From a virus: a DNA stretch of 64,000 nucleotides. Positions 4,494-27,700 of this stretch are shown piece after piece. A program made the translations under genes and the position numbers. The stretch is taken from IMG/VR virus record IMGVR_UViG_3300025646_000028, positions 8,765 through 72,764 of that record. The stretch is one strand, 5' to 3'. The stretch's first letter is position 1; every line of letters starts with the position of its first letter. The notes below the pieces were generated by a model. That model had not been told where the DNA came from and did no database searches. It saw only the letters and a list, made by a program, of their open reading frames with translations.

Positions 4494-5402
4494 ATGGCCT
4501 TAATATTACAAGCCGCAACTAAAGTATTAAAACCACTTAAAGTTTTATCTTATGGTCCAACGTATAGTGGTAAAACATTATCTTCATTGTACTTAGCTGT
4601 AGGTTTAGTTATGAAAATTCGTAACTGCAGTGAAGCTGATGCATACAAACACATTGTTATGATTGACACTGAGTTTGGTCGTGGTGCTTTATACAATAAG
4701 ATTGGTTTATATAATTATCTTCGTATTGATCCACCGTATTATACAGAAAAATTAGTAGATATGATTTCTCAACTTAATGAAATGGACCAAGTTGATGTTA
4801 TTATTATTGACTCACTCACACATTTCTGGGTTAAAGAAGGTGGTATCTTAGATCAAAAAGCTGCCAAAGATAAACTTGGTGGTAACTCTTATACTAACTG
4901 GCAAGACTTTACTGCTAAGTTTAATAAGATGATTGATAGTATTCTTACTTCACCAAAGCATATCTTTACTACAGCACGTGCTAAAACTGATACCGCATTA
5001 GTAACAGGTGACAATGGTAAAGCTACACCAAAATCTTATGGTCTTAAACCTGAGTTGCGTGATAACGTAGAATATGATTTCGATATTGTATTTAACATTG
5101 ATAAGCAATCTCACAACCTTATCGTAGATAAAGGTGTACCAGGTCTAAAACCTGTGTATGAGATTGCAACCGTAGATACTGGTAAAGAAATCTATAGTCT
5201 ATTTAGCGCAGATGCTGTCATCCCTGCTCGTACTAAATCGGATATTGCTGATAGTATTCGTGCTGTAGCTAAAGCTAATAGTATGATTCCATTTGTTCAA
5301 CTAGAATTACGTGGTCGTAAACTGGAAGACTTAGAAGAATCTGATATGCTTAGTTTAGAAAAAGCTTTACTTGATAACGTCAAGAAAATGCAATCTAAAT
5401 AA
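4494..5402 (+). CDS. AAA_24 / Sak4-like ATPase (recombinase-like)
   Basis: Walker A GPTYSGKT, IDTEFG, Walker B IIIDSLTHFW, EYDFD; next to an exonuclease gene. Confidence 0.85.
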   Translation: MALILQAATKVLKPLKVLSYGPTYSGKTLSSLYLAVGLVMKIRNCSEADAYKHIVMIDTEFGRGALYNKIGLYNYLRIDPPYYTEKLVDMISQLNEMDQVDVIIIDSLTHFWVKEGGILDQKAAKDKLGGNSYTNWQDFTAKFNKMIDSILTSPKHIFTTARAKTDTALVTGDNGKATPKSYGLKPELRDNVEYDFDIVFNIDKQSHNLIVDKGVPGLKPVYEIATVDTGKEIYSLFSADAVIPARTKSDIADSIRAVAKANSMIPFVQLELRGRKLEDLEESDMLSLEKALLDNVKKMQSK

Positions 5403-5404
5403 TT

Positions 5405-6172
5405 ATGGCTAATATCAGTGATGCTTCTGGTGTCATTGATATCAAAGGTGCATGGACTGAAGATCAAATTAAATCACTTTCTTATGTTTTATTCTTTCAA
5501 AACAATTTTGGTGATTATGGTTTTCAGTTCATAAACTTTGATGCGGTGTACCAATCGCTTATTAAAGAACGTTCCGTACCTTTTAGTGGCACAGGTCGTT
5601 GGTCATTCACTACTAATTTATCTTCGTTTACTGAATGGACAGATCTAACAAAAGATAGTTTTGAATTAGTTGATAAAACTATACCATTACAACAACAGAT
5701 AAGTTATGCTCAATATTGCAAACATCGAATAAATACAATGACAGCTTTAACATCTAAAGATCGTAGTTTAGATATTGTGTTTGCTGATTATGAACCTGGT
5801 GTTAGTATGGCATATCAAGCAACAGGTAGTATTGTAGGTGTTATATCTTATGATAGTATAACTAAAGAAACTGATGCTAGATTTGAATACATAGAAAAAA
5901 GTGTAAAAGAATATGAATGTAATTTAAAATTTTTAACAGAATTTGTATTAGGTAATGACTTAGATAAATTGTGGAATGTTTGTTATTCTATTATTAGTAG
6001 ACATTACGGAGACCTTATAAAAATACATAAAGAAAATTCAATAGATATTTTAATAGAGTTTGTAATGAAGGATCCTGAATGGTATAACTTAAGGGATTCT
6101 GAATATGAAGAAGTACAATCTGTCCCGGAAGAAATCCAAAACTTCCTATCAAATATGGTGAAGGGAGGATAG
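5405..6172 (+). CDS. Hypothetical protein
   Basis: 255-aa ORF tightly packed in the operon. Confidence 0.75.
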   Translation: MANISDASGVIDIKGAWTEDQIKSLSYVLFFQNNFGDYGFQFINFDAVYQSLIKERSVPFSGTGRWSFTTNLSSFTEWTDLTKDSFELVDKTIPLQQQISYAQYCKHRINTMTALTSKDRSLDIVFADYEPGVSMAYQATGSIVGVISYDSITKETDARFEYIEKSVKEYECNLKFLTEFVLGNDLDKLWNVCYSIISRHYGDLIKIHKENSIDILIEFVMKDPEWYNLRDSEYEEVQSVPEEIQNFLSNMVKGG

Positions 6173-6436
6173 ATGAATGTCAAAGATTTAGTATCTAAGT
6201 TTTATTACGACGCTAGTAAACCTGTTGTATTTATTATTAATGATAAAAGCTACACTTATTATGAAGTAGTAGATAATCCTGTATTATTGAAAATGGAAAT
6301 TAATAAAATAGAAATACAAGGTAAAGTTTATGAATTAACAAGTGATGATGTTTTACAATATAACTCTCATGTTATACATGATTTTGTTATACCTGATAAC
6401 GCTCATTACTTTTTAATTAAAATTATTATTAAATGA
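6173..6436 (+). CDS. Hypothetical protein
   Basis: GGAGG RBS; abuts the upstream stop. Confidence 0.7.
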   Translation: MNVKDLVSKFYYDASKPVVFIINDKSYTYYEVVDNPVLLKMEINKIEIQGKVYELTSDDVLQYNSHVIHDFVIPDNAHYFLIKIIIK

Positions 6437-6450
6437 AAGGAGGAATAAGT

Positions 6451-6669
6451 ATGTATTCATATACATTTAATGGTATTACTTATACAGCTAACACAGTTCT
6501 TGAACTTCAAATGAAGTTAGAACAAGTTGGATGTACTGATGATATTATTGCATTCTTTAATCAAGAAGCTTTAGCATCTTTACAAGATGATGAAGATCTT
6601 GCTAATGCAGATATGCAAGAAGAAGTTGTAACAGACTTTGAAGATGATGGTTTAAATCAACTAAACTAA
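6451..6669 (+). CDS. Small acidic hypothetical protein
   Basis: AGGAGG RBS precedes ATG at 6451 (track start is 6433); very acidic C-terminus. Confidence 0.7.
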   Translation: MYSYTFNGITYTANTVLELQMKLEQVGCTDDIIAFFNQEALASLQDDEDLANADMQEEVVTDFEDDGLNQLN

Positions 6670-6762
6670 CTAAACAATTCTAGGGGGATTGTTTACTTAG
6701 GTCAACTATAATGCCCGTCTTATAGTTGGTGTATCCGAGGTATGGCTACCTGACGGGCTTTT
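6666..6762 (+). ncRNA. Structured element (hairpin plus pseudoknot) between convergent operons
   Basis: Stems TAAACAAT/ATTGTTTA, CAACTATAA/TTATAGTTG and AGGTA/TACCT; loop GCCCGTC pairs with GACGGGC; T-tract follows. Confidence 0.45.
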
Positions 6763-9700
6763 ATCCTATTACGTTTCTTGACTGTCTCCAACGAACATAT
6801 TGTCTCCATTGAATATCTTTAACTAATGAATAAGGATTTATTTTTGGTTTACGCATACGTCCATACTTATTAAACCAATCACGATAAATATTTTCGTACT
6901 TCGCGTATCTACCATTTCTACCGTATCTATATTGCCGTGGAGTATACTTACCATAATTGTTTATATCATAAGCAAAACCACGGAATGTTGTACCGATAGA
7001 AGCTGGACGTGTTTCTAATAACTCTCTAGCTACAGGAACTTGTGCTGCTTGTTGACGTAAGTTAGTTTGTAACGCCATGTCACTTACACCTGTAACGGTA
7101 TTAGCTAAACGTCCAACTAATCCTAATGAAGCTAACTGATTTAATGCTTCAAATACACTTCGTTTTTCTACTAATGTTTTAACACCACGAAGTATAGGAG
7201 ACATGCGACCTTCAAATGCTTCTTGTGTATTGTATAGAATATTCATTACATCAAGTGCACCGTTACCTAAACGTATACCAAAAGTAGGACTTAAAGGAAT
7301 CCAACCATTACGCATTTGATATTTAATATAATCATTATATTCTTTTTCTTCTTCATCAATATATTGACCGTACCAACCGTCAAGGAAGTCAGACATAAAT
7401 CTCCACCAACGAGGACTGTTTAAACGATGTATCCAGTTAGTTATTGAACGCACAGGAAAAGAGATAAATGGAATGTCAGCCATTAAACGTTGTTCTAATG
7501 GAGATCTTAGACCGTAATTAAACCAGCTTCGTAAAGATGCTAATACAGATTCATCAAATGATTTATTGTAAATCATTAAGTTGTATAAAAAGTTTGTAAC
7601 ACGCGCACCGTTTTCAATAAAGGTATTAATACGGTCATAACCATCAATTAATGATGCTGTTAAACCTCTGAACGGTCCGCCAAAACCTTTAGCTAACTTA
7701 CGGTCTTTACGCGCATCTGCAATCATCTTTTTAATTTCTTCATATGATTTTGAAGACAAATCATTTTCGTCATAACCTTTATAGTTTGCAAATACTTCTG
7801 GTAACAATTCAAAATTATCTTTACGCAAGTAGTCAGACGTAGCAGCAGTATTCATGAAAGCACTTAATTGTTTTAGTAATGTTTTCTTCCATTTGTTTTT
7901 ATCATCAAAAATAGCTTTGCCTAATTTAGTAAGTCCTTTACGAACTTTACCATTTTCATCTCTTGCATCTACGCGTAAACCTGCAACCCACTTGCCGTTA
8001 ATTTCTTGGTTGTCGTATAGTTCAATGAATTCACCGAAACGAATGTTACTAACAAACTTAGCTGCGTCATAAAGCACATTTGTATATTTATCAATATTCT
8101 TTATTGTTATTAAATTCATTTGTTTTAATAAACGTTTTACTATAGGTAAATAATATTTAATACGCGGGCTTTCATTTTCTTTAGTTGCCCCAATAGCAAC
8201 ATAACTTTCTAAAACTTCTTTCATTAAACCTAAACGAGATTCAATTAACTTTGGATTACGTACTTTACTTTTTAGTTCTTTAATAATATCTTCGTAGTGC
8301 AAACCAATATTAATAATACTTGCGGTGTGTTCGTCACTATACTTTTCATAGTAACTCATAAGTTCTAAAGAAGTCATCGTCATATGGATAAAGTCATTTG
8401 ACTCTACTGTTTTAGGAAGTATTTGTGCATTGCTAAACAACTGATACACTGTATCATTTAAGTTTCTAAATAAGAATGCCGCACTAAACTTAGAAATATT
8501 CTTAGATAACAACTGTAATTTATAAGCAAAGAGTTCGATACCTGCAGGTTTTCTACGGCTAGTGTAAGTAGTTTCCATTGCTTGTATCCATGTATTAAGA
8601 TCAACAAACCCTACAATAGGTACAGCACCAGTGCCATCATCTTTAACTGCGTTATAAAGAGTTCTTAATTCATCTATGCTATTAATCTTAATCTCTTTAT
8701 AAGTCGGAGTTAAAGCTCTGTTGTCTTTTAATACAACAGTCGGATCAATTTGATCATAGACTTTACCGTTGTATACAACCTTGCCACCTTCTTTTTGGTA
8801 TGCTTCTAATTCTTCTAACGTTTTAAACTTTAACGCTTTGATTTCTTTTTCAGTAAACTGTGTATACAATTGATCTTTACTGTCTTTTTTAGGATCAAAA
8901 CGTCTAATGTTGTCTACAATAGATTTATAAGCGCCTTCATCTTTATAAGGATCTTTAACAATTACTAAACGATAATCTTGTTGACGTGTGCGTAAAAACT
9001 CATACACAATTTTTAAACTTACGTCCAGGTTATTAGGGTTAATCATGTTTGTTAATAACGTAACATCATTAGCCATAGCTAATCTAGCTCTAACTTTAGA
9101 ACTATCAAGATCTTCTTGTGTTAAATAACGTGGTTTACCTACATTGCTGTCGCCTAAACCGTAGCCATCTACTGTACGCAACAGTAAAATTCCGCCACCT
9201 AAATTATTAATCAACGCATTTTCTAATGCTTTAGATCTTAACTCTTGTTTAGCTTCTTCAATTTGTCTATTTTCTTCTTCTAGTTTAGCGATAGGATCTT
9301 CATTATTTTCGTACCATTCTTTAATACGTTCTGTATTTAATAACGATTTTTCTTCAGCACTAAGTTTGACTTCTTCAGCTTTGACTGCTTTTTCTAAATC
9401 TTTTATTTCTAATTCAATAGCACGTTTACGATTTTGAAGTGCGTTAAGTTCACCTATACCATTCTTAATTTTATTTTGTAGACGTGCATTTTTTACACGT
9501 GGGTTTTGTAGCTTTAATTGCGCACTAGATTTAAGATTTAAATCTGCTTGTAGTTTCTTTATTTCTTTAATTCTAGCTATGACTTCTTCTTTTTGAATCA
9601 ATAATAATTCAATATCTGTTTTTAAATTACCAATAAACTCATTGACTTTTGTTGTCTCTGAATCGAATGTTGCGTATTGCAACTTGCTTGTTAAAGCGTT

Positions 9701-12700
9701 TGTAACTTTATTGTAGGTATCTTTACTTAACTCTTCTTGTGTTTTTGAAATAACTTCGTTGTTATTAGTACCAGCTGCACTTACAGCAATTTGTACTTCT
9801 TCCATAGATAAACCTTCATCACGAATTTCTTGTGAAGCATCATCTTCTGGAGAAATAAACACACGGTTACCTTCTTCATCTACAATAAACCAACCTTCAT
9901 CCATAGCATTAACGTTATTAAAGAAGTTAAAAAATAAATTGTTAGACTTGTAACGTTTATCAAAAGCTTGTTTAAAGTCAGGATTACGTAGAGCGTAAAA
10001 CAGTCGTAAAATATTACTCGCATTTTTTACGCTATCAATACTATTAAAGTTAATATTCTTTGCACCACTGTAACGTTCATTAACTACTTGCACAATAGAA
10101 AGACTGCTACGCATAAAACCTATTAGTTTATAGAAAGGTATGTTAAAGCCATTAAAGAAATTAATACTTTCTTCTAAGTCTTTTTTATTAATAGCATAGT
10201 CATTTGGGTTACTTAATGCTTTATTTAATTGACTGAGACGTTTGTAAAACAGAGTAGTTATTTCATCTGGCATGTATAAGTTTCCAAACACGTACAACTT
10301 CAAACGTTCTTTAATTAAGTTCTTAATCGCTGTTTTTGCACTTGCTTCATCATCATAACTTTCTTGCAAACGTATACGTGATCCAGGGTTTTCTTCATAG
10401 TATTCTTTATTTAAACTGGCAGATGTAATACGTTCTTCTTTTATATCAAGTCTTTCAGTAAAGTCTCGATCAGCGTTAATAGCTCTACCAAGTATAGCTT
10501 CTGTAGTGTCACTACCTAAAATAATATTACGCACACTTTTACGGGTTGTAATGTTATCTACTTTTCTAGTAAATCGAATATATCTTTCGTTAGAATTTGA
10601 ATCAATACCATCATGCTTAGCCATGCTAATTGTTTCTTGTATTAAATTAGACATGTTGTTATTTGCTACACGTTCAATAAAGTATTGATCTAAATAACCT
10701 TTTGTTAATTTCTGTAAATCAACCCTTCTTAAAAATTCTTCAGCGGCTTTACTACCTCGGAAATAATAAAACAATAATTCCTTTTTAAAGCTAGCACCTA
10801 ATTCTTCTCCAAGTGATTTGCTATTTCTAAAATTCTCTATGTAGTTTTTAATAACAGGTTCATTTTTTATTGAAGAGTTTTCTACAAATTCTAAATAGTC
10901 TTTAACGGTTATAGTTTCTCTATCCATAAAATTAGATAAATTTTCTAATTCAGATTCAGCATCCATCATTGTTTTAACAAGTCTTCTTAAGTCTTTTAAA
11001 ACATGTTCTGTATCACGTAAAAAATATTTAATATCAATTGCAGATTGTTCAGTCCAAATACGTTTAACTTCTTCAACAGTTAGCCCGTTTAAAATATTAT
11101 AAAGTTCTTCGTAGTTTACATTTTCTGCTTTTGCTTCGTCTGCTAGTGTCGCTAACAAACTACGTACAGTTACTTCACCTTCAGTATTAGTAGCTCCTAT
11201 AGCTTTCCAGAATATACCTTGTTTAGATTTATTAATGTGTTTGTATTCTGCAATAATTGAAGATGTAAATTGATCTTTACGTTTATTACCTGCGTAATTA
11301 ACACCGTTTTTAGATGCGCGAATACGGCCTGTTGTAGATTGTTCTAGTTTTTTAGACAACACTAACAACACTAAACGTTTATAGTATTTACGATAAGCTT
11401 GTTTATCTTCTTCAGTAACTCTATTAGTATTATTAAGAATGTCTTGTTCTTCTTGAGTAAAGTTATTAAGATATTCTTTCTTTAATTTTTCTGAAATAAT
11501 AATGTCTTCACCGTATTCAAAGCTGTTAAAGTTCTTTTCAATTGTATAAATTGTATCAATCTCATCTTTAAAAGTGTCGTAATAATCTTTAAGTTTATCA
11601 ACATTAAAGTAGTCTGATACTTTTTGAATGCTTGTATCTTCAACACTAGATACATCATTACCTTCATTGTTTATACGTACATGTGCGTTGACATATAACC
11701 TTAATGTATCAACATCATTAGTGTCTAATGGTTCTAAATTATTTTCTACACTTTTTGCTAGTTGGTTATATGTGTCTCCACTGATTAATCGGTACATTTC
11801 TACATTTAAATATTCACCTTCTTCTCCACGAATATCTTTATTTAAAGTATTTTTACCACGTTGATTACGTCCTACACTATAGCTAATTAATTTTGCGCCA
11901 CTCATAAAGTGTTGATCGTTTTCTACTTTATCTTTAGCAAAAAGTTCTCGATTAGCTTTTTCTAAGTACGATATTAAATTACCTTTTTTATCAATTTCTT
12001 CATCAATAGAGTAGTAGTTTAAATCGGTAGCTAATAGTTCTCGTAAAGGAGCATTATCTCCTTCAACATCAGAAAATTTTAATAAACCCATACCCATAGT
12101 ATCACCGTCGTTATCAGCACCCATCATGTTGTATGCGTATACGTTAACGTTAACTGCATATGACGTGCTAAAACCTATAGCTTTTAACACAGGGGTAGCT
12201 GCGTAATCTTGAACAGGTGAACGGACTGCTAAAACGTACGTGTATGTTTGGTTAAGTTGGTACCCATCTAATTTATTAGTACCACTTTCTACTGCTAAAT
12301 GTAACGCACCGTTTTCTTCAGCTAAAATACCACGCGAGTTTAAAAACTCTATACGTTGTTCTATGTTTTCAAAACCTAAAATAGTGTCAATATATTCTTT
12401 AGATTTTTTAGCATTTAAAGGTTCAGTTTTAATTAAAGTATTACCTTCTTTGCTATCTTTAACTACAATAGCGTCCCAAGCATCTTTAGGTAAAGTTATT
12501 TCTCCAGCATCAAGTGTAACGTCCACAAGATATTGAGCACGCACACCGTCTATACGTTTAAATCTTGATTGGTAGTAAGCACTATTCTTACCACTATACA
12601 TTTTCTTTAATGCATTGCTTTCAGTATTTTTTACAATACGATCAATGTTTTTATTGTAACCTTCCTTAGGACCACTTGTAGTGTTTCTCAAGTACAAGTA

Positions 12701-15700
12701 GTTTAAATATTGCATACCTTGTTCTCTTACATATTCATGTATTTCTTTCTTTTGGTATGCTTCAGTTAATTTAATTTGTAATTCTTCTAAACGTTCTACT
12801 GTGTTTACTTCTTCTTCGTCTTCTAATCCTGTTGCGTTTTTAATTACAGTCTTAAAACCTAAAGAACGTATATTAGATAACAGATTTAAGTTATCATTGT
12901 TAGGACCAAAAACTTTATTAAAGTTATCTAACCCAATTTTATTTATTATAGGTATAGAAACAGTAGGCGAAACATAAGTACCTTTAATTGGATTGTTATT
13001 ACTGTCAACAACGTTACGAATAAGTTTACCTGCTGTGTTAAATTTAGTTTGTGTAGCCATAGCTTGCGCACTATTTTCATGATCAGCGTAAACGTATGCC
13101 AAACCACGAACATATGTAGTTGCAGTTAAATCAGTTTTAATTAGTCTACGTTCATGTACTTTATTCATGTCGTAGTCTTCTGTAATAAATTGATCTGATT
13201 TTGTTTTAATATACGCAGGCGTAATAATTGCCGGGACATCTTTTTCTGCGTCTTCTTCTTTAAAGTCACGTAAAATTAAAACGTTATACAATTCAGTATC
13301 TTTTGTAGTGTCAGTAATCAAAGATTTAAATTCTTCATCATTACTTAATTTATCTTTTATTTCTTTTGAAAGACCTTCTAACAATTCATAAGAATCAAAG
13401 CTACTATCCACAAGTAAAACATTGTCTTCTTTATTTAATAAAGGTCCAAATGTTTTTCTTAAGTAAGGATCTATTGCTTTAAAAAAGCGTAAGGTTCTTG
13501 CGGGGATTAATGAGCTTCCATCTTTTTTAGTTTCATTAAGTAAATAAGCACGTATATAATTAAATAACATTTCACCGTAAATACCAGCTGTACCACGGCT
13601 ATTAACTGAGTTAGCACTTGCTACAAATAATGCGCCATATGTTTTATATAACCCTTGAATAGGTCTGACAGCTCCTTTAAACCCGGAGTGTAATCCTAAC
13701 CATGTCTTATTACCATTACCATATTCAGTTGAATAGTAGAAATCTGCATCAACAGCAATTTCATCTAATGGTATACGTGGATCGTTTGCAAAAGCAATAG
13801 GTACAGTAAACCCAAATTGATGTACTTCTGTATCATCTTTATAACTCTTATATAAAGATTTACTCATTACATTAGGCATAAAGATTTGTGTATTAGCACT
13901 CTTAGTTAATCGCACAAAGTTATTTATTACTTCTTTGTTTTTAATATACTTACCAGGATTACTTAAAAACGTCGTTAATAATTTTTTACCCGGAGCAACT
14001 TTATCAGGAATGTCTCCGTAAATATTATTTAAAAATTTAAGGCTAGTATACTTAGCTAAAAGATGCTTAGCACTTAACATAGTACGGATTGCGTTTGTAC
14101 TTAATAAGAACGGGAAGTTTAAAGCATAACGTGTTTTATATTTAAGTACTGCACCTGCACTACCTTCAGAGTTTAATTGAAGATCAATATTGTTTTCTTT
14201 TAAAAATGCATCATCAAAAGACTCAATGTTATAATCATATGTATAATCTGCATTTATTTGATTAACAATAGAGCCCGGTTCAAGTGCTTTATAACGCGAC
14301 GTTAAACGGTTATATATACCTATATAAATAGTTTTTAAATCACGTTCTGTTAGTTGTCTTTGCTTTTGATACAATGCAACTTCTGCAAAGAACTGATTAC
14401 GAATCATTTCAGATATGTTTAGTACACGTAAGTATTTTGAGTTAGCTGCAAATTTTTCATGAGTTAAAGTTTTTTGATAGATTGCTTCGTTTGCTTCTTC
14501 TGCTTCGGTTATTTTTGAAGCTTCTGTTTTAGAATTAACACGTCTAAAGTTATCTTTATTTTTAATTAAAAATTTAATAAGTACATCAGAAGCGGCTTTA
14601 CCACTATCAACACCTTTAGCATAGAACACTTCATCTCTTCTAACATTGGGTAAAATGCTGTATTTAGCCTTGCCATCTTTAGTCCAGTAAAATTTCTTTT
14701 CATCTAAAAGATTTTCTAATTCTTTAAATGTAAAGTCAGAGTCAAATTTAGCATCTTCAGAATTAAAATAAACATTTATATTTTTTTCTAATGTTTGAAA
14801 GCCTGCAGTAGAACCACCGTCATATTTTAAATGAGCAGGAATATATCCGTAGCGTAATTTAATTTCAATTCTATTTTTCTTTGCGTTAAAACTTGCAGTA
14901 CTAACAAGATTATATTCGTCATCTGAGACACTATATAAATAAGTGTTATCAATTGCATTGTCTTGTCGTATAGCTTTAGAAAGTACAGTATTGTGTACAG
15001 TTCGTATAGCTAAAATATCATTACCTTTTTCTGGATCATCATAATGTACTTTAAGTCCTAAGCGTTTTAACGTGGCGCTTTCAAAAACTTCTTTAAGATC
15101 TAGTGTACTACTAGCTATGCTGTCAAACTGTTGATCATTCATACGGTTTGAAGGTTTTTCTCCTGTAATTAAACTGTAAATAGTTTCATTACTTAGATTC
15201 TCTATTTTAGTTTCTAGTCCAGTAATACTTTCCATTACGTTAGAGTACGTTAAAAGTAAAACATTGAGATCAGTTTTACCTGGTAAGTCTGACTCAACAT
15301 AATTTTCCAACCAAGCTTTGGCTTGTAGTAAACCGTTTTTGCGATCATTAAGGTACTCATTAAACACAACAAGTTTTGTGCTTGTTGTTTCTTTAATAAG
15401 ATCTTCAAAACTAATTTGACTTAGCGAAAGATTTTCTTCATAGTTTTCTAATAAGTTAAGTACTTTAGTAAATGCTGCTGTGTACTTTTGATAGTCTTCT
15501 TGGTTTTCAGAATCTGTAATTACACCATACATTTTACGTAAGGATATTAAATCGATAGGTTTGTTTTCAAATAAGATATTGTTGTTTGCGATACTAATCC
15601 CTTTAAAGGTTTTAATCTTTAATAAGTTTGTAAGAGCTTCAACTAACTTAGTGTATGTTTGTTTTAAGTAGACTTTTAATTCATCTTGATAATCCTTCAG

Positions 15701-18700
15701 TATGTTTTTTAAGAATGTTTCAACAACAGCGTCTTCTAATTTGCCATCTTCTCTAAGTACTGTTTGCTTAGAAAGAGCTTTAAGTTCTTCATTGATAGCT
15801 TTTAAAGCGTCTTCTTTAGTTATAGATTTATTAAGCACGTCTAATATACGTGTGTCTACACTTCCTTCTAAAAATACTTTATAGTCTGTAATTTCTTTAC
15901 CACTACGTATAGCCGCAGCTAAACGAATAATATTGCTGAGTTTTAATTTTAAATCTCTATCAGCCATTTCTTTTTGAGTTTCTAATAAACCCAACTCTTT
16001 AGTAGCTGTAGTACTAGATCTTATTTCTTTAACAGAATTTAATGCAATACTTACAGTTTGACCATAACCAGATGTAGTTAATTTATCTATTTTTTGTGCA
16101 GAAGAAATAATTTGTTTTACAATTTCATCATCACTTATAACTTTTGCTGCAACTTCTTCTCGAAGTCTACTAATAGTTTCTTTGTGTTTTCTTATTGTTT
16201 CTTTTTTCTTTTCAATTTCTTTTTGCTTTTGTAGTACAATTTCTTCAGAAGTTAATCCTGTTTTTAAAACTTCAGCTAGTGTACTATTAGCAGCTTGTAA
16301 AGCATCAAGTATTTCAATACTTTCTTTTATATTTAACTCAACATCTTTGTCGTAGAGTTTAACACCGGCAAGCTTTATAGCACGTTCTTTAAGTTCGCTG
16401 CGTACACCTACACCTGATGTAGCTCCGTATTTAATTACAGCCCCATTTAAAGTTTCATTGTAGTTTTTCTCTACACCTTTTATTAATTTATCTACATATT
16501 CAATAATAATTTTTTCAACAGCAGGTGTCTTATTTTCTAAAGTAATACCTTCCATAAACCGTAAAACTAAATCATTTTTAATTTCAGTTTTAATAGCGTC
16601 TGTTACTTTTTTATCAAAGTATTTGGTTAATTGATCTCTAAGATATTTAATTGCGCCTGTGCTAACATCAAAAATTTGGTTTTTAATATCATCGTTAAGA
16701 ATATAACCTGTTTGTTCAGAAGCTTTTTTAATAGCTTGATTTATTTTAAGCGCAGTAATTTTGTTATTAATACGATCTAAATCTTCTTTAATTCTATCTA
16801 GTTCTTGCTTAGTAATAAATTCTTTTTTAGTTTCAATTGTTTTAATAAGACGATCACTTGCTTCTTGAAGTTCTTTAATATACTCTGTAGTTATTTCATC
16901 CGCGTCTAGCTCAGTCTTATCTATTTTATTAAAAATAGTTTCAAGACTATTTTCTTCAGATAAATTACGATAGTATTCGTTAACAATTAAATTATCACCG
17001 ATACGACTAATAAAGTTTTTAATAATATTAAAATCAAAACGGAAACCGTTGTGTGCAACAATGTCTACATTTGCATCTCCAACTTTTTGTATAAAAGTAT
17101 TAATAAAGTTGTCGTTATTTTTAACTTGTTTTACACGCGCAATTAACTCGTCCATTTTTATTTTAGCTTTAACTTCAAATTCTTCAGGAGATAAGTCTTC
17201 TTTTTCCCATTGCTTTTTCCATATGCGTTTTTGTTGCTCATAAAACTTAAGCATGTTTTCTTTATAACTTCCGTCATCATTAACTCCGTCATAAAATAAA
17301 CCACTATTAATGTATACATCATTAATAATTAACTGTTTATCTTTTACAGTAATCATTGTTATTTGATAAGGGGTGTCCTCACCGTTGTAACGGTACGTTT
17401 CTAAGTCAATAACAATAAAGTTTTTTGACGCAGGTTTTTGATGTATATAATTTAATAATGTAATTAAAGAGTCAACAACAGAGTTGTGTAATGCGTAGTC
17501 TCCCCTACTCTTTATAAATGTTTTTAAAAATTCAATGTCTTGACCAGGAAATTTTTCTTGTACAATTTTTAAAACAATATTAATAACATCTATTTCAGCT
17601 GCATCTTTTTTAATTCTAGCTTTATAGTAATGTTTAAATAAGTCTAAGTTACTTAATTTATCTCCAGCCACTTCTAGTTCTTTATTATACGCAGCTTGAC
17701 GATCAGCTTTTGTTTTTTCTAAAGCTTCTTTTTTAATTTCTAAATCAGCTTTTAAAGTTTCAATGCCTTCTCTTCGTTTAGGTAAATCGTTTAAAGCTTG
17801 TTTAAAATCATTAACATTTTTAAGTTTATCTAAAAATTGTTTTTTATAACGTTTATAGTTTTTTATTTCAAAGTTGTCTTTACTGTTTGTAACAAATCGG
17901 ATTAATGAAGCCACTGTTTGATCATCCATATTATCAATAGCTTCACCTTCAATGTCTTTGTAAAGGTTGCTAAATAGTTTTTTAGCGTGATCAAGATCAG
18001 AAACAGTAGGAACTTTCCCTTTACGATCTAATAAAGTTTTTTCTAAACCAATACTTCCTATAGTTTTTTCTGCTTTATTAATATACTCTACAAATTTGTT
18101 TGAAAAATATTCTACACTTATATTAAATTTATTAACTAAAGCGTTGTTAACGTTTGCTAATAATGCTTGTGCAAAACGTAGTTTATCATCTGCTAAATCA
18201 CTAAAATCAAGTTCAACTTGTTTACTACCAAAAGATTTACTAATTGCGTCATAGTTATTAGGGTGTTTAATAAAATTAAAAATTAAATTAAATGCTGTAA
18301 GAGGTGTGATATCTTTAAACTGTTCTCTTGTTTCATTCTCTATTCTTGCAGCTTCAGCATCTGTAAGCTCTCGTTTTAAGTCACTACTACGTTTATTAAT
18401 TTTTAATTCGTTGAAAACAGTAAAGTATAAATTTAGTTTAAATTCTTCTTCACCTTCTAATTTAGGAAGATCAACAGCTTCAGGTATATCAACGATTCTG
18501 CGGTTTGCTAAAGTATTAGCGTGGTTTCTAAGTATACTTATTTCATTTTGAACAGCTTTTGTTAATACATCTAAACTAATAAGTTTATCGTTTTTAACTA
18601 CACCTAAATCTTTTTTACCGGCTATACCGAATTGAACATTAAAGTCACGGATAAAACCGTATAAAACTTTTAAATATGAAAGTTGTTTGTTGTAAAGCGC

Positions 18701-21700
18701 TTTATGGCGTTTTGTAATTAACGCTTTTTCTGTATCACTTAACTTAGTAAACGTACCTTTATCGTCTATTGCTTTAAATGTTTTTGCTAAAACAGATTTA
18801 CTTTCTTCTTTAAAATCTTTAATAATTTTTGATAACGTTTCAAGCGCTGTGTCAACGTTTTCAAAATCATCAATTTGTAAAGAAGTAAGTTCTTCTTCGT
18901 AGTTTTGCAAGTTGCGTTCATGTATAGCACGTTTTGCAGCGTACGCTGTATATTTTTTAATTAACTTACCTTCACTATCTCTGCCACGTGCATCACGTCT
19001 ATCACGTATTTTATTAAGATTTTCAAATACTTTTTCTTTAATAGTTTTATTATGTAATGTTATAAACTCTGCTTCTGTAGAAATTTTTAATTCTAAAAGT
19101 TCTTCTTTAAAAAAGCTATATATAGTTTTAAGTGCTTCAGTTGGCGGCACACCTTCTCTTCTAAGTTGTAAGTATGTATCCCAATAGAAACTGTTAACTT
19201 TGTATTCAACACTATCTTCTATTTTTTTAACATCTTCAACATCTTTTAAATAAGCATCATACTCTTTTAAATATTTATTATCTGTTTTACTATTTAATTT
19301 AAGCAATTCACCTTCTTCTTTTTCTATAAGCAACTTAATTTCTGCTTCTCTTTGATCCATGTAATAATTGCGAAGTCCTGGGTAGTTTGTAAACAGAGCT
19401 TTAATAAGTTCGAGTTTCTTTTCTTTAAAAGTTTTTTCTTCTTCAGCAATTAATTTATCCGCTTCTGTTATTTTTTCTTGTAAAATAAAGGAAGCTAAAT
19501 CTGCTTGTTTATATAAATCATCTGTACCTACAATACGTTGCTTATTATCATAGGTGTAATAATCAGGTGTTGCTAAACGTTCATTAACAGTTTCGTTACT
19601 CGTTTTAATTTTTGGAATAGTAAATAATTTTTCTTGATTTTTAATATCATCAGCACGTGCAATAGTTTTGTTTAAACCACTTTGACGTTTTTTAATTTCG
19701 TCATTAAGTATTTTAATAGCTAATTCTTCAGCAGCTTCACGCTTACTAAGTATAGTTGTTTTAGCACCAACAGTTGCTTTGTTACCATAAGCAACATCAA
19801 AGGTGTCGTAGAATTGATTTGGATTATAAAAGTTTTCAGAGCTTTTAATAAATTTTTGAATTCTTAAACCCATGTTAATTGTTTGTTGTTGCTCTAACGT
19901 AAGCTCTTCAAAATCATTTTTACCTTGTAGCTTTGCTAATTCTTTTTTCTTTTGAAACTCAGTAAGACTTTCATCTTGTATAATACGTTTAATCACACTT
20001 GTAATTGTCTTGTACTTATATGATTTATATTTAATATCATCTTCAAATTGTTTGCTAACATTTTCAACAATTCGATTTTGTATTTCAGGAATATCTGTAT
20101 GATCAACAAAGCGTGCTAAATAAATATAGCCTAAAATACCTTTAACAAATGTTTCATTAAATTCTACAATTTTATTATTAGTAGCAGACACTTCTATAAT
20201 TTTGTCTGTTAGTGCTTTAATTTCAGCATCAAATAATTCTGATAATTCTTCTGGAGATTTTTTAGTTCCTGCATTATCTAAAATATATTTTTCTTTTGCA
20301 TCACGTAACAGCATGTTGTAGTAATCAATAAATGTATTAAGACTAGATGTATCTTTTTTAAACAAACCTACAGCAGCTGTAATATCTCTTACACGAATAA
20401 ACTGGCCAGGTTTAAAATCTTTCTTTAATTTTTCTAACAAGTCAGTCCATGTAATACGTAAGCTATTATATAATTGATTAGCACTACCAACATTTTTATT
20501 AGTAGCCATGTTTTCTGCCATCATATCGTTGATAAATTCTTTACGCATTAACATTAATTCATATATACGAGAACCAACAAAACCAGCATCACCTTCTTTA
20601 AAGATAGGTTCATATAAAGTTCTTTGTGTATCTGCAGCTACAAGTTTAATATTATTTTGTTTATAAATAATTCCATTAAAATCACCGGAGTATTCTTCAT
20701 TATCTCTAAGATTAGTATCGTCCAAAATAATACGACCAAGTCTATCGTTATAGTATGTTGTTTGACGATCAATTTCTCTTAGTATAGAGAACCCGCGATT
20801 AAAATGAAAGTTAACACTATTAGTAATAGCATTACCTTCTCCTAGTAAATTGTTAATACTAATTGTTTGTAAGCGTAAGTTGTTATCTTTTTCACGGATT
20901 AATTCAAAATCACGTACAGCTTTTATGTCTTCTAAACTAACAGTATAATTAGGTCTCTTTAGTACGTTGCGTATGTATTGGTCTTTATGGTAATTAATAA
21001 ACCATATTAACAAATTAGCTTTAGTAAAGTCATCACCTTCTGCGCTAGGATCATTTGTTTTAATATGTGCGTTTATAAAATGCTGAATTGTTTTGTATTC
21101 ACCTTCTAATATTGAAAACACTTCATCACGACTAATACCAAACTCTTTTAGCATTCTTACAATTTCTTCTGAGTCTAAATTAAAGTCATTGTTTCTAATA
21201 ACATTTTTAAAGTAATCAAAAAATCTTGTACTTGTTTCTAAAAGATCTATCTGATTAACTTTAAAAATTTCTTTGTAAGTTAATTTAGTCTTTTTAATTT
21301 TGTAACGCAACGATTTAATTCTTTGCAGTTCATTAATATACGTGTTAACTTTTCCTGGTACTTTGCCTTCTTCTCCAAATATAGCTTTATCTTTTAAAGC
21401 ATCTTCTCCTGTAAGATAAACACCTTCATTTTTCTTTGTAGTAGCAAGCGCAATCATTGTTTGAAGTTGATCTTGCGTAAACCCTTCACTTAAAATTTGT
21501 TCTTTAAGAGCTTCTGTTTGTTTAATAACACGATCAAGCGTAACTACTTTAGGTACATATTGATTAGAAGTGCTTGTAGTTTTCGCATATAAATGATCTG
21601 TAGCAGTTTCAATAACGTCTCCTGCAAACACAGTCAAAAGTAAACGATCACTTTGATCAAGCTCAATATTAAATTTTTTACTTATATGTTCACTTATATA

Positions 21701-24700
21701 CTCATCGATTTTAACATCTTGTATTTCTTCTAATGTACCTTCTTTTATTTGTTTTTCTACTTCAGCTTTTGATGGGAAGTCATAGAAAAACATAAGACTT
21801 AATTTATCACCACGGAAAATTAAATGTTCCATATTAAAACCGTAACGGTCTTTTTTATTTGTAATTTGCTGCGAAAGTCTTAAACGCTTTTCTACGTTTG
21901 CTAACAAAGCTGCTTCTGGTTTTGAAATAGTTTTGTTTCTTTTTTTAATTAATAATTCATCACGTGTAGTTTGTAATAAGTTTAAGTAATCAACAGCGTT
22001 AAATCCATCTAGTTGATCAGCTACTCGCTTGTTCATGTATTGATTAATTGAAATTAAATAAGACTTAAGTACGTATCCATAAACAATATGTTTTACAATA
22101 TCATCCGGACTCTTAAAGTCTTTACGTGTAGGATCACTATTATAAATTTTTTCTGCAAGACTGTATATACCTGAACCGTTTTTAGGCTTTAAGTCTAAAT
22201 CAAAGTTTTTAAGAGGTATAATTTTTTCTAACTGTGCATACAGTTCATCTAATGTAATACGATCTTTATACCAATCTTTCCATGCGTTTTTTAAACTACT
22301 TAAATGAGAATAGTTAATTGTGTCTTTATTATGTTTAGCAATAAGTTTATAGTGACGTTTACGAGCTTCTTGTATAATGTCGTAAAAGTTTTTTAAATGA
22401 TATTGTTGCGCATTTAAAAGACTTATACCTTCATCTGCGCTACCGTATCTGTTGTATGCAGAGGCTTTAAATAACTCAAGCATACTTTTCTTTCTTTTCT
22501 TATAAGGGTCTCTAAAGACTTTTTCAAGATCGGTTACTATAGGACTTGTTAATTCTTTATTAATTTCTAAGAAAGATAAAACATTTTGTGAAGCGGTATC
22601 TTCGCTGAACTGTGTTTTAATGTGCTGTTGAATTATAGGTATAATTTTTTTGTATGCGATTTTGTTTGTTTTTTCAATGTGTTTTACAATTCCATAAATA
22701 GAGTTCTTTAATCTAAGTATTTCTGAAGTTGTTTCAGGTTTTAAAACATTGTAGTAATTTATTTTATCTACTAAAGGATCATCACCATAAGTTTTTTGCA
22801 TGTATGTTAATGCTTTTATAATCTTATCAAACAGTCCTCGTTGTACTAAGTTAGCTACTAAAACCGGGTCGTTTAAATCTTTTTTAAGCTTACTTAAATC
22901 GTAACCTTTCTTAATAAATTTTCCTTTAAAGAAGTTAACACCTATAGTTTCTAAATCGTAATCACCTTTGATGCGATCATAGAAATCAAAAAACATATTA
23001 TTAAGTTTAGCTTCTTCTTGTATACGTCTAAACGTTTCGGTGTTAAATAAATTAGTACCTTCACCGTAGCTCTTTAAGATCGGCACAAAACCTTGTAAGT
23101 TCTTTTTTGTATAACGTTGTTGATAAAACAAACTTAATTTATTTAATAACTCACTAGCTGTAACTTTGTTTGTAGTATCTAAACGTTCTTTGTAAATAAG
23201 GTTTAAATCTTTTAACCACAAATCTACAATAACTTTTTTACCTTGCACGTTTAATACTTCAGGTACAGGTTTAATTGTTTCATCTCTAACAGTGTAACGA
23301 TCAACCATATCAAAGTCGTCTTTATTATTTTTTTGGATATCTTCTATTTCATTATATTTAGTTTCAGATAAAATAAACACTTCACTAATGTTGTATTCTT
23401 CTCCGTTCATAACACGTTTATAAAGAGCTGCTAAACTTTCGTTGCCACCAAAACTCCATTGTTCGTCAGGTACAACAAAAACAGCTGTACCATCTTCTGT
23501 TACAATTCGAAGATCAGCATTTTTTGTTTGCTCATTAGCTGTTAAGTTATCTTTAGCTTTATTAAATTCTTTTTTGTCATTTTTACCAAACACATGTCTT
23601 ACAAAATAAAGATTTAGTTTAGGAATACCAGGCACATCTGTTCTATCTTTAAACACTTCTCGTCTACGATAAAGACGATCTGCACCTGTAGGATCAATGC
23701 CAAGTACGTAATCTTTTAAATCTGTATCAACGGTATTGTTAAAGTAGTCTTGTGCTAAATCATCGTCTGCTTGCATGCGAGTATAAATTGTGTCAAAGTC
23801 TGCAAATGCATCTAACTCAATGCGTTTATTAATTTCTGTGTAATGTTTTAAAACAGCTTGAAGATTACCAATCTTTGTTGTTACTCTATTTACGTAACGT
23901 TTATATCTTGGTGTATCTTTATCTTCAATATTTTGTTTTTTAAATGTAGCTAGATCTTCTTTAGCATCAGCTATTCTTTCTTCTATGCGAGTAAGATTAC
24001 TGTCTTGCGCTAAACCTTTTACAGTTTTACGATCTTTGAAAAAGATGTCGCGTATAATTTGTTTAATATTACTGGGGCTAACAATGACACTTTGTTCATT
24101 ACCTTCAGGACTTTTAATCGTGTAGCCTTCAAAGTCTTTTGGATTAATTTGACTTAATTTTAAAAGCGTTAAAAGTAATAAAGTATTATTATTACGCAAC
24201 ACACCTTTGTTATCTAATAAATCTACGGTAAATAAATCTTTAACAGTGCCGTCTTTGTTAGTTGCTTTAAAAGTGTATGTTTTGGGTAAACGTGTATTAC
24301 CTTTGTTTTCTTCTGCTGTATAACGTTGAGCCGCTCTAAAAATATAATCCGCAAACGTTCTAAATCTATTATCGTAAATAGCTCTGAAATCTATTTTATT
24401 TGTATCTAAGTCTGTTTCAAATATTTCATTGACTAATAATAAACGTTGTCGTAACTCTATAACACCTGGATCTGAAAACAAGTTGTACAACTCTTCAGTA
24501 GCTCCTGGTTGCTTCATGAATATTTCTTTGTCAATACTAAAAGAGTTGTATGTTAGTAATGTACCAAACTCTTGTATTAACATATCGTAGCTTGCAACAG
24601 CTGCGGCTTCTAAACTAGTTACTTTTGTAGCAGGATCTAATGCTGCCATACGATTACCTATTGTAGTAACTAGATTTAAAACATCTCTTCTTGTAACACC

Positions 24701-27700
24701 ATGAATAAAAATTAAATCAAACATAGTATATTCAATAGCTTTATTCATTTTTTCTGTTTGGTATTTAAAAATTATTTCTCCGTCTCTTTGTTCGATACGG
24801 TTAAAATTATCAAAGCTTCTTAACGTAGTTTTATTTGCATAGTCTTCTTGATAATATTTAGACACCGCGTTTAAAAGCTTAAACATAATATGTCCATACT
24901 GATTAGAACGCGCACCTTCTTTAGCTGACGCAAGGTCTTTAAATATTTCTCTTATTTCTTGTGACTCTGCAATAGCTTTTTTACGTATAGAAGGATTTAA
25001 ACTAGCGTTATAATCAGATATGCTTTTCTTTAAACTACTTTCAAATCTTCGAAGATCAACAGTTAATTCGTTTAAAGTGTCTAAAAATAACGATCCGTAT
25101 TTATTTTTATTTAAAATAGCATGTACTACTTTATTTGTTTCTCTTACAATATCGTTTAGTTCTGTAAACTTATTTTGATCTTCACTTATTTTAAGTAAAT
25201 ATTTTCTAGCATCAATATTAGTTGCATCTGCTCCTAAACGTTTCTTAGCAACATTTATTAATGCACTTTTAAACATTGCAGTATAACTACGTTGATCACC
25301 GATTCGTTTAGTCAAATTAACGCGTACATCAACTTTACCATTTTTTAAATAAAGCTTACTAATTTCTTTAGCAATAGTTTGACGGCTGTCTTTGCTTTTA
25401 ATTTTTAAATCAGCAATTGTAAGCAGCTCCGGATATTTCTTTATTAACAACGCAATTTTAAAACTAAACACATTAACTTGTTCTTCGTACTCAGAAGTAC
25501 TACGTGCATTATTCTTTAAAAGCTGTAAAATGTTAACGTCTTTACTATTTTTAACATCATAAAAAAGTGACATGTTTAAACTGTATTGGATAAAAGGTGG
25601 TAGTAAAACAAAAGGTTGTTTTAATTTTAAAACTTTACCACGTCCTTGTGCTTGATCTCCAGATAAACGTACAACACGATTTGGATCTAACAAGAATTGT
25701 ACAATATTAACTAAAGCAAGTTCACGTCTTTGGTTTACACTGCTAGGTAATTTTGAAATATCATAATCTAAAGCAGTACGAATAGTAATAGGTCCGTACT
25801 TTGCGTCTTTAATTCTAGTAATAACATTTTCACTACGTTGATCTTCGGTTAATTTTTTATTAAACTCACTGTCGCTAGCAGATTCATCATATAAAGAAAC
25901 AATGCGTTCTTTTTCTAAACGATGTTGTTCTCTTTCTGCTTCAGCTTTATTAAAACGTTCTTCTGTTTGAACACGAACACCTTCATCTTCAGGTGTAAGA
26001 TCATCTTCCGCGTTCATTTTAAAACGTACAATAGATGCGTCGCGTAAACCTTTAATGTCAGGTTCAGCAATATTAATTAATTCATCAACAAATTCTGACT
26101 CCATTAAGTCATTAACAATACTTGTAGCAATTGCTTTATTTTTTAAAGCCTGTTGTATATCGTATTTAGAAATATCGTCAGGTAATATTTCACTTATACT
26201 AGAGCGTTTAAATAAAGTAAGTTTGTTTTTATCGTGGTCAACGTAATCATATAAATATGTTTTAACATATCTATAGATAGGAGTATTTTTTAAATTAATT
26301 TCAAATCTATTTCTAATATCATCAAGTAATTCTTTTTGATAGTTAGTTAAGTCGTTTGTTGTTTTTGCAAAATCATCATCAAGTTCTTTTAATAACTCCG
26401 CTGCTTTTTTAAATGCCAAAACAATAGGATTAGTACTGCTGTTTAAATCTGTTTTGTTTTTATACAACTTCATTTGTTCTTGCATAACATAACGATAAAG
26501 CATGCTTGTTGTTAAATTATCTGCAAGAATTGTTGTAGTGCTTGTAGTTTTTATTTGACTTACAGCTTCAATAGATGCGTATATCTTTCTAAGCGTATAC
26601 GATTCAAGTAGTTTATCTTTATCTGCTTGATCTAAATTAGATTCATTAATGTAGGCAACTAATGTTTTAACACGGTTAGCTTTAGATAATGCGGTCCATT
26701 GTTTTAAGTCAATATCAAAAAACTTGTGGTTAAAGTTTAATAAGTCTTCAAACACGTCTTTACCTAAATACTGATTTAAAAGTTTATTAACTTGTGTTTG
26801 AAAATTATCTTTTAATACAATACCAACATCGTTTATTTCTTTAGCATTTTTATAGATATCAATAAAAAATTCTTTTGTAATGTTTTCATTAACATCAACG
26901 GTAACTTTTTTACCGTTTGCATCTGTATAATCAATTTGAAATTTAATTCCATTTAAAAAATTAACGCGTTGAATTTCATTCATTACTTCTAAAGCACGAT
27001 CTAATTTATCGTTAACAAACCCAGCTATAAGTTTAGTAGGGTCTTTTTCTCCAGCACGAATACGTTTTTGCAGTGCTCGATAATCTTCTCGATTAATTTG
27101 AATCTTACCTTTAATACGTTTGTTACCTGAAGTATAACCTTCTAATTCTTTTCTTGCAGTTTCAAGTTTATCAAGCTTTGCAATAACAGCATCAATATCT
27201 TTTTTAATAGTTTGATAACCAGCATCGTTGTTTAAATATTCAATATCAAATTTACTTTCTAGTTCTTTTTGTTTTGTTTGAAGATCAGTAAGTTTTTTGT
27301 TTTCATCTTCAATGTCAGATTTAGTTTTAGTTAATTTGCCATCTAATTTTTTAAATTCTAGTTCTAAAGATTCGCTAGCCTTTTGTGGAATCAAATCATT
27401 GATATACGCTCTAAATGCATACAGCATACTTAATGTATTGATTGCATAATCATCTGCACGTATGGTAGCTAGGTTTAAAATGTTTAATGCGCTTTCGTAA
27501 TATGTAATATATTTTTCGTACACAAGATCATTTTTAATCATCATTTCATAATCTAAAAATGCTGCGCTTAAAGCGTTACGACGCAATGTTTGATCTTTCG
27601 AAAGATTTGTTTCGCCACGTAATTTGTTTAATTCGTCAAGGTACTGATCTTTGTTAGCCTCCGTAATTGTTATAGCGGCTTGATTACCAATTTTTACATC

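Follow-up and report, generated by a model that had tools for sequence, protein, structure and literature searches.

An apparently permuted DEDDh exonuclease domain in a giant phage protein with an RNA-polymerase-like motif, known from metagenomes

Phage RNA polymerases (RNAPs) that are packaged in the virion start infection. In vitro, gp66 of a crAss-like phage transcribes single-stranded or denatured DNA and not native duplex, and the opening of the template in the cell is left unexplained, at least in the main text of that report (10.1101/2020.03.07.982082). The window considered here, a stretch of 64,000 nucleotides (positions 8,765 to 72,764 of the IMG/VR virus record IMGVR_UViG_3300025646_000028), contains on its minus strand a giant open reading frame (ORF), P0001 (6761..30472; 7,903 amino acids, aa), which houses a nuclease core, a long helical region and an RNAP-like motif. 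A conserved nuclease that shares its chain with a motif of this kind points to one concrete route to a template. By sequence comparison, and with moderate confidence, we read aa ~4265-4505 of P0001 (16958..17680, minus strand; checked by translation) as one complete, circularly permuted DEDDh 3'-5' exonuclease domain. In the canonical order, the ExoIII motif ([HY]-x3-4-D) comes after ExoI and ExoII, while the proposed domain would run from an ExoIII-like helix through ExoI and ExoII to a candidate for strand beta5. What is new is that giant polymerase-bearing proteins of phages, known only from metagenomes, have as a conserved domain a DEDDh exonuclease whose motif order is apparently permuted.

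The family to which P0001 belongs was delimited by several searches. A word-indexed search limited to proteins of 4,346-13,831 aa (4,754 candidates) recovered the query itself and nine homologues of 5,094-7,959 aa, which are 28-49% identical to it over aa 4320-5200. Four alignments are referred to below: A1, of the N-domain; A2, of 13 rows; A3, of the upstream piece aa 4265-4350; and A4, of four sequences of the RNAP module. Against 1.84 billion representatives, the A1 profile matched 23 proteins at E<=1e-3, including three more giants (7,662-7,998 aa) and a dozen shorter family pieces. Alignment-based scans yielded three viral and four metagenome loci, two of the latter short, and a single-sequence scan of viral contigs found no relative. 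One locus, L008, on a metagenome contig of 39,645 bases, is a distant relative, 24% identical over A1 residues 84-225, and keeps the string AHNGYNFDF; its upstream part falls outside the alignment.

Within P0001, the ExoI and ExoII motifs lie in an island of conservation. Over the ten giants first aligned, the number of invariant positions per 100 aa is 22 and 17 in aa 4301-4500 as against 0-4 in aa 4501-5100, or 39 in total against 9 in the following 600 residues. ExoI, NFIVIDLETY (aa 4351-4360, 17393..17422, minus strand), carries D4356 and E4358 on the predicted strand beta1, and its 'DLETY' resembles the 'DIET' of family B polymerase exonuclease domains. ExoII, DIVAHNGFRFDFNII (aa 4470-4484, 17021..17065, minus strand), carries H4474 and D4480; its core reads AHNGFRFDF and fits the pattern N-x2-3-[FY]-D at the start of the helix that follows beta4. 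Between beta3 and the helix before beta4 there is an additional helical hairpin of about 45 aa (aa 4405-4449, 17126..17260, minus strand), and after ExoII comes the beta5 candidate, NLIVNEYYRNL (aa 4494-4504, 16961..16993, minus strand). Among 30 family sequences, counted where each position is covered, D4356 is kept in 25/25, and E4358, D4480 and H4474 each in 27/27; N4498 of the beta5 candidate is kept in 25 of 26. A preliminary description of this DNA, made from the letters alone, had called the two motifs DnaQ-like and quoted strings for them, among them NFIVIDLET (aa 4351-4359, 17396-17422, minus strand) and PYQITMI (aa 4368-4374, minus strand). All of its strings occur in the single minus-strand ORF 6761..30472 at the positions it gave, the DnaQ likeness goes beyond chance in view of the conservation island and of profile alignments with DEDD exonucleases, and the acidic residues of both motifs are invariant in the homologues wherever these are covered. 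Its remark that no ExoIII follows directly after ExoII also holds, as aa 4505-4750 contain no invariant H/Y..D pair.

The ExoI-ExoII core is very likely a true homologue of DEDD exonucleases, judging from the sequence matches that follow. Outside the family, the A1 profile matched P0024 (E 4.1e-6), P0027 and P0028 (E 5e-4 to 6e-4) and P0029 (E 9e-4) among the 1.84 billion representatives. In Pfam, P0027 and P0028 pass the cut-off of RNase_T and P0029 that of DNA_pol_B_exo1; P0024 stays below the cut-off for these families. The nudivirus-type proteins P0024, P0029, P0030 (HgNV_068 of Dikerogammarus haemobaphes nudivirus) and P0031, together with the TREX-like tandem P0027 and P0028, are the closest free-standing relatives of the core, so that a phage domain is linked to proteins of an arthropod virus; P0029 has only two relatives at E<=1e-3 among 182 candidates. 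The core does not reach the curated Pfam cut-offs, and hhalign paired a profile of 13 giants (aa 4100-5416) with free-standing DEDDh proteins at probabilities of 95.5% (E 1.6e-8) and 96.4% (E 1.1e-9). These alignments extend from aa ~4318/4353 to 4507/4521, that is, from ExoI via ExoII to NEYYRNL, which is set against the YYDTL strand of the relatives. Both BLASTP and hhalign pair the beta5 candidate with the 'FRYYDTL'/'F.DT' strand of P0024 and its relatives, and BLASTP of the core against the free-standing relatives gave E down to 7e-8 in a database of 98,363 residues. Secondary hhalign alignments, which came from long forced alternatives (probability 0.1-2%), were not used as evidence. In the Protein Data Bank (PDB), a profile search returned 60 sequences at E<=10, consisting of 28 PolB-type polymerases, 28 TREX1/2 chains and four others; every E was at least 0.08, and all of the alignments listed fell on the ExoII region, which aligns with that of archaeal PolB and of TREX1/2. 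With aa 4258-4591 as the query, phmmer gave only PDB matches at E>=0.84, with TREX2 at 1.6. Pfam scans of individual family members found sub-threshold matches to DEDD-clan families only (PF10108 in 3/10 members, Rv2179c-like in 3/10), and PHROGs searches with five pieces of P0001 matched two unnamed families (E 0.003-0.004) on the nuclease piece and nothing on the others. The nearest clusters in the ESM Atlas (0.85-0.88, leads only) are small viral proteins, some with RNase_T, RNase_H_2 or PolB-exo domains.

Structure prediction is consistent with a DEDD fold, but weakly, and covers the first two-thirds of the domain. Both AlphaFold 2 (AF2) models begin at aa 4316. The shorter one (aa 4316-4545, ten sequences; mean predicted local distance difference test, pLDDT, 67.3; predicted template modelling score, pTM, 0.61) has strands at model residues 37-47, 50-62 and 65-72, a hairpin at 90-134, a helix at 139-149, a strand at 155-158 and then the ExoII helix. 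ExoI occupies the first of these strands (37-47, beta1), and the inserted hairpin is formed by helices 90-106 and 114-134 at pLDDT 80-93. Foldseek returned nothing at E<=1e-3; all E values were at least 0.01, with PolC exo, RNase T, a DnaQ domain, DexA and ExoI at 0.015-0.19. VIA-align against 48,161 representatives found PolC exo (2p1j_B) at Z 5.2 (root-mean-square deviation, rmsd, 3.8 over 101 aligned residues), followed by Cas2-DEDDh (Z 5.1), ExoI (4.8), DinG exo (4.7) and EXD2 (4.6), and when it was run on Foldseek's top 1,000 the result consisted mostly of DEDD chains at Z 3.5-5.7. Overall, the DEDD matches (PolC exo, Cas2-DEDDh, DinG exo, DnaQ, Orn, epsilon, TREX1/2) have an rmsd of 3.1-5.4 over 76-113 residues. 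They pair model residues ~29-178 with the first ~105-140 residues of the chains, for example 7-116 of 174 in epsilon and 4-135 of 211 in TREX2. Of the 143 residues in this span only about 100 are aligned, in keeping with a hairpin insert.

The canonical order is not found in P0001: aa 4505-4750 lack an invariant H/Y..D pair, H5143 further downstream is kept in 2/10 giants, and DEDD chains align only as far as the ExoII helix. A candidate is present on the other side of the core. The helix immediately before beta1 reads LHNSVVDSLITLLNY, with H4329, N4330, D4334, I4337, N4341 and Q4345 invariant in 13/13 sequences; as the ExoIII-like helix it is delimited as YALHNSVVDSLITLLNYIHQ (aa 4326-4345, 17438..17497, minus strand). 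Its H4329-x4-D4334 has the spacing of the DEDDh H-x4-D, lies 22 aa before ExoI and is kept at H4329 in 24/24 and at D4334 in 23/24 of the family sequences that cover it. Three shorter members, P0033, P0036 and P0015, share the motif order H-x4-D, then DMET (DxET), then HxGxxFD. About 45 residues upstream of the H-x4-D helix lies LSNLDLFKHYYK (aa 4273-4284, 17621..17656, minus strand), which is like the helix that precedes ExoIII in the free-standing relatives. There, the element directly before H-T-A-E-A-D is LSNLNLFKYYIN or LTNSNLFKHYIN, and 8/10 residues of LSNLDLFKHYYK are identical with residues 174-183 of P0031 (LSNLNLFKYY); N4275 is invariant in A3. The permuted domain would accordingly be composed of the pre-ExoIII helix, the ExoIII helix with H4329 and D4334, ExoI, beta2-3, the inserted hairpin, beta4, ExoII and beta5, with the break point of the permutation after beta5. 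If it worked as DEDDh enzymes do, two Mg2+ ions would be held by four carboxylates, the His would activate a water molecule, and nucleotides would be removed from a free 3' end. Since the five presumed catalytic residues are kept across the family, an active enzyme is to be expected.

The hhalign, BLASTP, position-specific scoring matrix (PSSM) and complex-prediction tests of the upstream site did not presuppose that site. When the C-terminal third of the nudiviral relatives (48 columns) was compared with a profile of 12 giants (7,831 columns), hhalign placed its best match on the LSNLDLFKHYYK helix (P 0.021, 14 columns; next best P 0.19). In BLASTP with the same third of the relatives, 9 of the 40 best high-scoring segment pairs (HSPs) among 575 fell at aa ~4233-4298 and none at aa 5098-5160, all at E>=0.32. 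A PSSM of 20 aa, built from seven ExoIII motifs of free-standing relatives, ranked the upstream helix first of 7,417 columns when averaged over the ten-giant alignment (mean 7.84; runner-up 0.30; background -18.4 +/- 5.2). In single proteins, P0001 to P0013, its ranks were 1, 1, 9, 1, 8, 1, 7, 16, 1, 17, 89, 41 and 15 among ~5,000-8,000 windows each, that is, first in 5/13 giants, within the top 20 in 11/13 and 89 at worst. Complex prediction of the upstream piece (aa 4265-4350) with the core (aa 4351-4510) gave 'weak support', with a score of 0.46 as against 0.07 for the best of three controls. The mark used is reached by 58 of 80 solved complexes and by 2 of 110 mismatched pairs, and at scores of 0.60 or less it was reached by only 7 of the 80 solved complexes plus both passing mismatches. 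At least 76% of contacts are common to the runs, and partner pLDDT is at least 71; as the two chains are neighbours in one polypeptide, contact was likely beforehand, and resemblance to DEDD structures already solved may also account for the pass. A hidden Markov model of the upstream segment scored ~0-5 bits against four free-standing exonucleases and served only to display how the strings pair.

Several observations weigh against a permuted domain. The placement of the upstream H-x4-D in the active site, next to D4356, E4358 and D4480, is a prediction, and VIA-align and Foldseek, which align sequentially, cannot reveal a circular permutation. In the AF2 model, NLIVNEYY is not a strand and has a pLDDT below 60, and unrelated short helical matches attain the same VIA-align Z as DEDD chains. 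The H-x4-D was spotted by eye prior to the scan, the motifs in the PSSM come from six proteins of which four are mutually close relatives, the hhalign and BLAST matches of the LSNL helix are each weak (P 0.021; E>=0.32), and in the fragment P0025 the position of D4334 is occupied by Y. In Pfam, no DEDD family was matched by the upstream piece in 4/4 homologues at E<=10. The A3 profile (seven sequences) found 16 PDB sequences at E<=10, none of them a 3'-5' (DEDD-type) exonuclease; a cytochrome trimer and designed helical repeats were at the top, and the only nuclease rows were Ribonuclease J and five homing-endonuclease-like fusion proteins. The core itself misses the curated Pfam cut-offs, its best match being PF10108 with 16.3-16.8 bits (E 0.006-0.008) as against a cut-off of 24. 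PF00929 (RNase_T) had no match in the giant ORF at E<=10 in a six-frame search and none at E<=1 in protein scans, and NCBIfam gave nothing at E<=1.

The main rival to permutation is a truncated DEDD module that retains ExoI and ExoII only, has no ExoIII and uses the upstream H-x4-D for packing or for binding a partner; such a domain might bind metal or nucleic acid or act as a weak or altered nuclease. It would explain why the structural alignments span only the N-terminal two-thirds of DEDD domains and why the upstream piece goes unrecognised as an exonuclease in family and PDB searches, and there is a precedent in MAEL, a DEDD-fold domain with a changed active site (PMC2628886). However, D, E and D as well as the H-x4-D, with exact DEDDh spacing and 22 aa away, are strictly invariant in sequences that are 22-50% identical, the upstream helix is the top ExoIII-motif match across the family alignment of ~7,400 columns, and LSNL.LFK resembles the pre-ExoIII helix. 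We regard truncation as unlikely, though as a serious contender. That the region bears a chance resemblance to DEDD exonucleases and is unrelated to them is scarcely credible. Such a view could draw on the unmet Pfam and NCBIfam thresholds, the Foldseek E values of at least 0.01 and the VIA-align Z of at most 5.7, but it conflicts with the hhalign probabilities of 95-96% at E 1e-8 to 1e-9, with HMMER matches to proteins that carry RNase_T or PolB_exo1, with the fact that 56 of the 60 weak PDB matches are DEDD-domain proteins, and with the dominance of DEDD chains when Foldseek's top 1,000 were aligned by VIA-align.

The preliminary description had proposed yet another arrangement, in which a DEDDh domain is split by a helical insert of ~640 aa and completed by strings at aa 5122-5159 (14996..15109, minus strand), and in which the exonuclease is fused upstream of an RNAP. 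The fusion stands as far as an RNAP-like motif goes: the DEDD-like core lies in the same chain, ~1,640 residues before the DxDGD motif, and is conserved in every giant found. The splitting is not supported. The strings exist (STLDLK at aa 5122-5127, TLKRLG at 5134-5139, HYDD at 5143-5146 and NDILAIRTV at 5151-5159, the last at 14996-15022, minus strand) and are superficially similar to DTL..L..H.A..D, and their neighbours G5104, M5111 and S5121 are invariant in the ten giants, the first two also in the 13-row A2. However, the column of H5143 reads H/V/M/H/W/M/Y/Y/V/F (His in 2/10) and that of D5152 reads D/D/D/D/D/N/A/P/P/P (Asp in 5/10), the segment is partly absent from P0013 in the comparison of 13 sequences, its PSSM rank is 311 of 7,417 columns, and none of the 40 best HSPs of the relatives' C-terminal third falls there, the top hhalign matches likewise lying elsewhere. 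In the longer AF2 model (1,015 residues, 13-row alignment; pLDDT 67.8, pTM 0.38), residues 783-843 (aa 5098-5158) have a pLDDT below 50 and are the part of lowest confidence, and no structural alignment reaches the segment. The DEDD chain 2p1j_B aligns only with model residues 36-179 (chain 357-461 of 171 residues; Z 6.0, rmsd 3.7, 103 aligned); given the pTM of 0.38, this is missing support for one fold from two halves rather than disproof. With the whole model, VIA-align gives 129 chains at Z>=5, predominantly helical proteins, and the only DEDD row is at rank 48. Completion by aa 5122-5159 is therefore very improbable. A split with other residues, in which a beta-rich domain at aa 5164-5304 (14561..14983, minus strand) folds back and D5184 or D5289 is the fourth metal ligand, is improbable too, if a little less so. 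This domain is predicted as a five-strand sheet with helices (model strands 849-920, helix 975-989, pLDDT ~75-86); D5184, Y5208, F5261 and D5289 are invariant, the two Asp in 13/13 sequences (A2 columns D869 and D974), and in the ExoIII-PSSM scan the helix of D5289 comes within the best three windows of P0001, joint first in P0004 and at rank 62 of 7,417 in the family. Against this, the base position of the motif is occupied there by neither His nor Tyr and the Asp position by Ala, none of the DEDD alignments runs into aa 5164-5304, and the model with its pTM of 0.38 is uninformative on domain packing; moreover, the domain, which comes after the helical region, adjoins the highly conserved C-terminal module and may belong to it.

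With the permuted domain as the preferred arrangement, the helical region of ~590 aa (aa 4506-5097, 15182..16957, minus strand) would come after the nuclease and not within it, and aa 5122-5159 would be a variable linker. The region has 0-4 invariant positions per 100 aa and is mostly helical in the AF2 model; the long helical stretch of the earlier proposal is retained, and its role in splitting a nuclease domain is not. Other candidates for missing elements were discarded: a DEDDy-type Y-x3-D at NEYYRNL or Y5144, where the Asp position is unconserved; an ExoIII within the helical region at aa ~4675-4715, which has no invariant residue in 13 sequences; and, before aa 4265, a first DEDD copy in degenerate form, which was only a 2% hhalign alternative.

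The RNAP-like character of the C-terminal module is suggested by the string ADNDGDTMG (aa 6119-6127, 12092..12118, minus strand), a putative metal-binding motif of the RNA-polymerase type whose ADNDGD loop is invariant in 4/4 sequences of A4 (D221, D223, G224, D225), and by the ESM Atlas, where the nearest named clusters belong to PF00623, RNA_pol_Rpb1_2 (0.88-0.89, a lead only). Searches of this module in Pfam, PHROGs and the PDB (phmmer and a profile of four sequences) gave no polymerase. From the place of its gene among structural genes and the precedent of gp66, the N4 virion RNAP (vRNAP) and P23-45, P0001 would be packaged and ejected. As gp66 transcribes only single-stranded or denatured DNA, resection of 3' ends is the preferred function by analogy: the nuclease may resect the 3' ends of the entering genome and so expose a single-stranded template for the fused RNAP, which would be of the two-barrel type. 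Alternatively, the nuclease may trim the 3' ends of RNA or attack nucleic acids of the host; the preliminary description had suggested template production, transcript processing and action against host defence as possible roles. The full picture, a permuted and catalytically intact DEDDh domain in an ejected virion protein of ~7,900 residues that hands the resected single strand to an RNAP of the same chain unable to start on double-stranded DNA, is a tentative proposal and, taken as a whole, rather unlikely to be right in every part. If true, it would provide a built-in answer to how virion polymerases get their template.

The viral contig containing the window is 72,764 bases long, with an estimated completeness of 79% (CheckV). 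PHROGs matches of genes near P0001 include a helicase, a DNA polymerase, an exonuclease, a Sak4-like protein, a major head protein and tail fibres, and the gene of P0001 is on the same strand as the adjoining head and tail-fibre genes. Neither aa 4258-5300 (nuclease) nor aa 5825-6824 (polymerase) had a tblastn match in 50,697 GenBank phage records, and the DNA polymerase of the contig has its closest relatives there in Paenibacillus and Bacillus phages, at 27-30% identity; together, these results indicate that the lineage is absent from the sequenced isolates in that collection. The kinship of the DNA polymerase hints at a host of the Bacillota type. The gene of this polymerase, which is of family A (1548-3536, plus strand), has the sole RNase_T-like matches in the contig (E 0.0175 and 0.18, six-frame search). 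Within P0001, which according to its translation contains no cysteine (count 0 in 7,903 aa), no Pfam family attains its cut-off outside the nuclease either, and the nuclease adds an enzymatic domain to a metagenomic family of giant proteins otherwise almost without recognisable parts. Conservation in P0001 is highest over the last ~300 residues (aa ~7600-7903, 6764-8500, minus strand), where ten homologues show 28-34 invariant positions per 100 aa, and it exceeds that around the polymerase motif. Near the other end (aa ~185-269, 29666-29920, minus strand), a sub-threshold Pfam match to the T (translocation) domain of diphtheria toxin (16.6 bits as against a cut-off of 27; E 0.01) probably reflects mere amphipathic or hydrophobic helices. 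The shorter family members P0015 (522 aa), P0033 (1,252 aa) and P0036 (956 aa) sit on contigs that are 79 kb, 1.42 Mb and 43 kb long; frameshifts or a different genetic code may interrupt the giant gene there, or it may lie in a cellular genome.

Among known systems, the virion RNAPs (phi14:2 gp66; N4 vRNAP, ~3,500 aa; the P23-45 tape-measure-RNAP fusion, 5,002 aa) resemble P0001 as very large phage proteins with a DxDGD-type motif and adjoining structural genes, whereas P0001 has no sequence match in the 50,697 GenBank phage records or in the PDB and is a putative virion protein. Neither 'exonuclease' nor 'nuclease' is used in the main text of the gp66 preprint or in that of the P23-45 preprint (0 occurrences), and no nuclease fusion is described there. 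More broadly, no description of a circular DEDD permutation or of a nuclease in such a polymerase chain was found in the literature, in a search that left subscription journals mostly outside and with the possibility that the extended data of the gp66 and P23-45 papers hold domain maps. Other fusions of a DEDD nuclease with a nucleic-acid machine are Cas2-DEDDh (8fyc) and the N-terminal exo domain of DinG (9ii8, 8zef), which rank with the best structural matches of the P0001 core (102-103 residues aligned, Z 4.7-5.1); they differ in their canonical motif order, in their partners and in being cellular proteins. Family B polymerase exo domains (PF03104, PF10108; DEDDy) give the best PDB and Pfam scores, on the ExoII region (E 0.08 and 0.006-0.008), but these are below the curated cut-offs, and P0001 has no conserved Y-x3-D and a candidate H-x4-D of the DEDDh kind.

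The closest parallels are the DEDDh exonucleases themselves, such as TREX1/TREX2, Pol III epsilon, RNase T, oligoribonuclease and PolC exo. P0001 shares with them ExoI as D-x-E on beta1, ExoII as H-N-G-x2-F-D, a helical H-x4-D and, as predicted, a core of beta1-2-3, helix, beta4 and helix, with ~100-113 residues aligned. It differs in that the H-x4-D precedes ExoI rather than following ExoII, in the ~45-aa hairpin after beta3 and the ~45 aa between the LSNL helix and the His, and in that the domain lies inside a chain of 7,903 aa and is missed by Pfam RNase_T. The two termini of the epsilon domain can reportedly be joined, from the work on cyclized epsilon. The corresponding entry (2gui, 'Cyclized versions of the proofreading exonuclease subunit of E. 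coli DNA polymerase III') is among the structural matches of the core. If the motif order is confirmed, P0001 would represent a natural circular permutation of the DnaQ fold, useful for the study of fold evolution, and models that depend on motif order, such as Pfam RNase_T, would miss domains of this kind. The free-standing nudivirus-type relatives have in common with P0001 the strings 'VKNN..FI..F' and 'AHNG..FDF.I', the 'YY' strand and the 'LSNL.LFK.Y' helix. In these relatives, however, ExoI, ExoII, beta5, LSNLNLFKYYIN and HTAEAD follow each other in canonical order within 210-224 aa, whereas the giants carry the last two elements in front.

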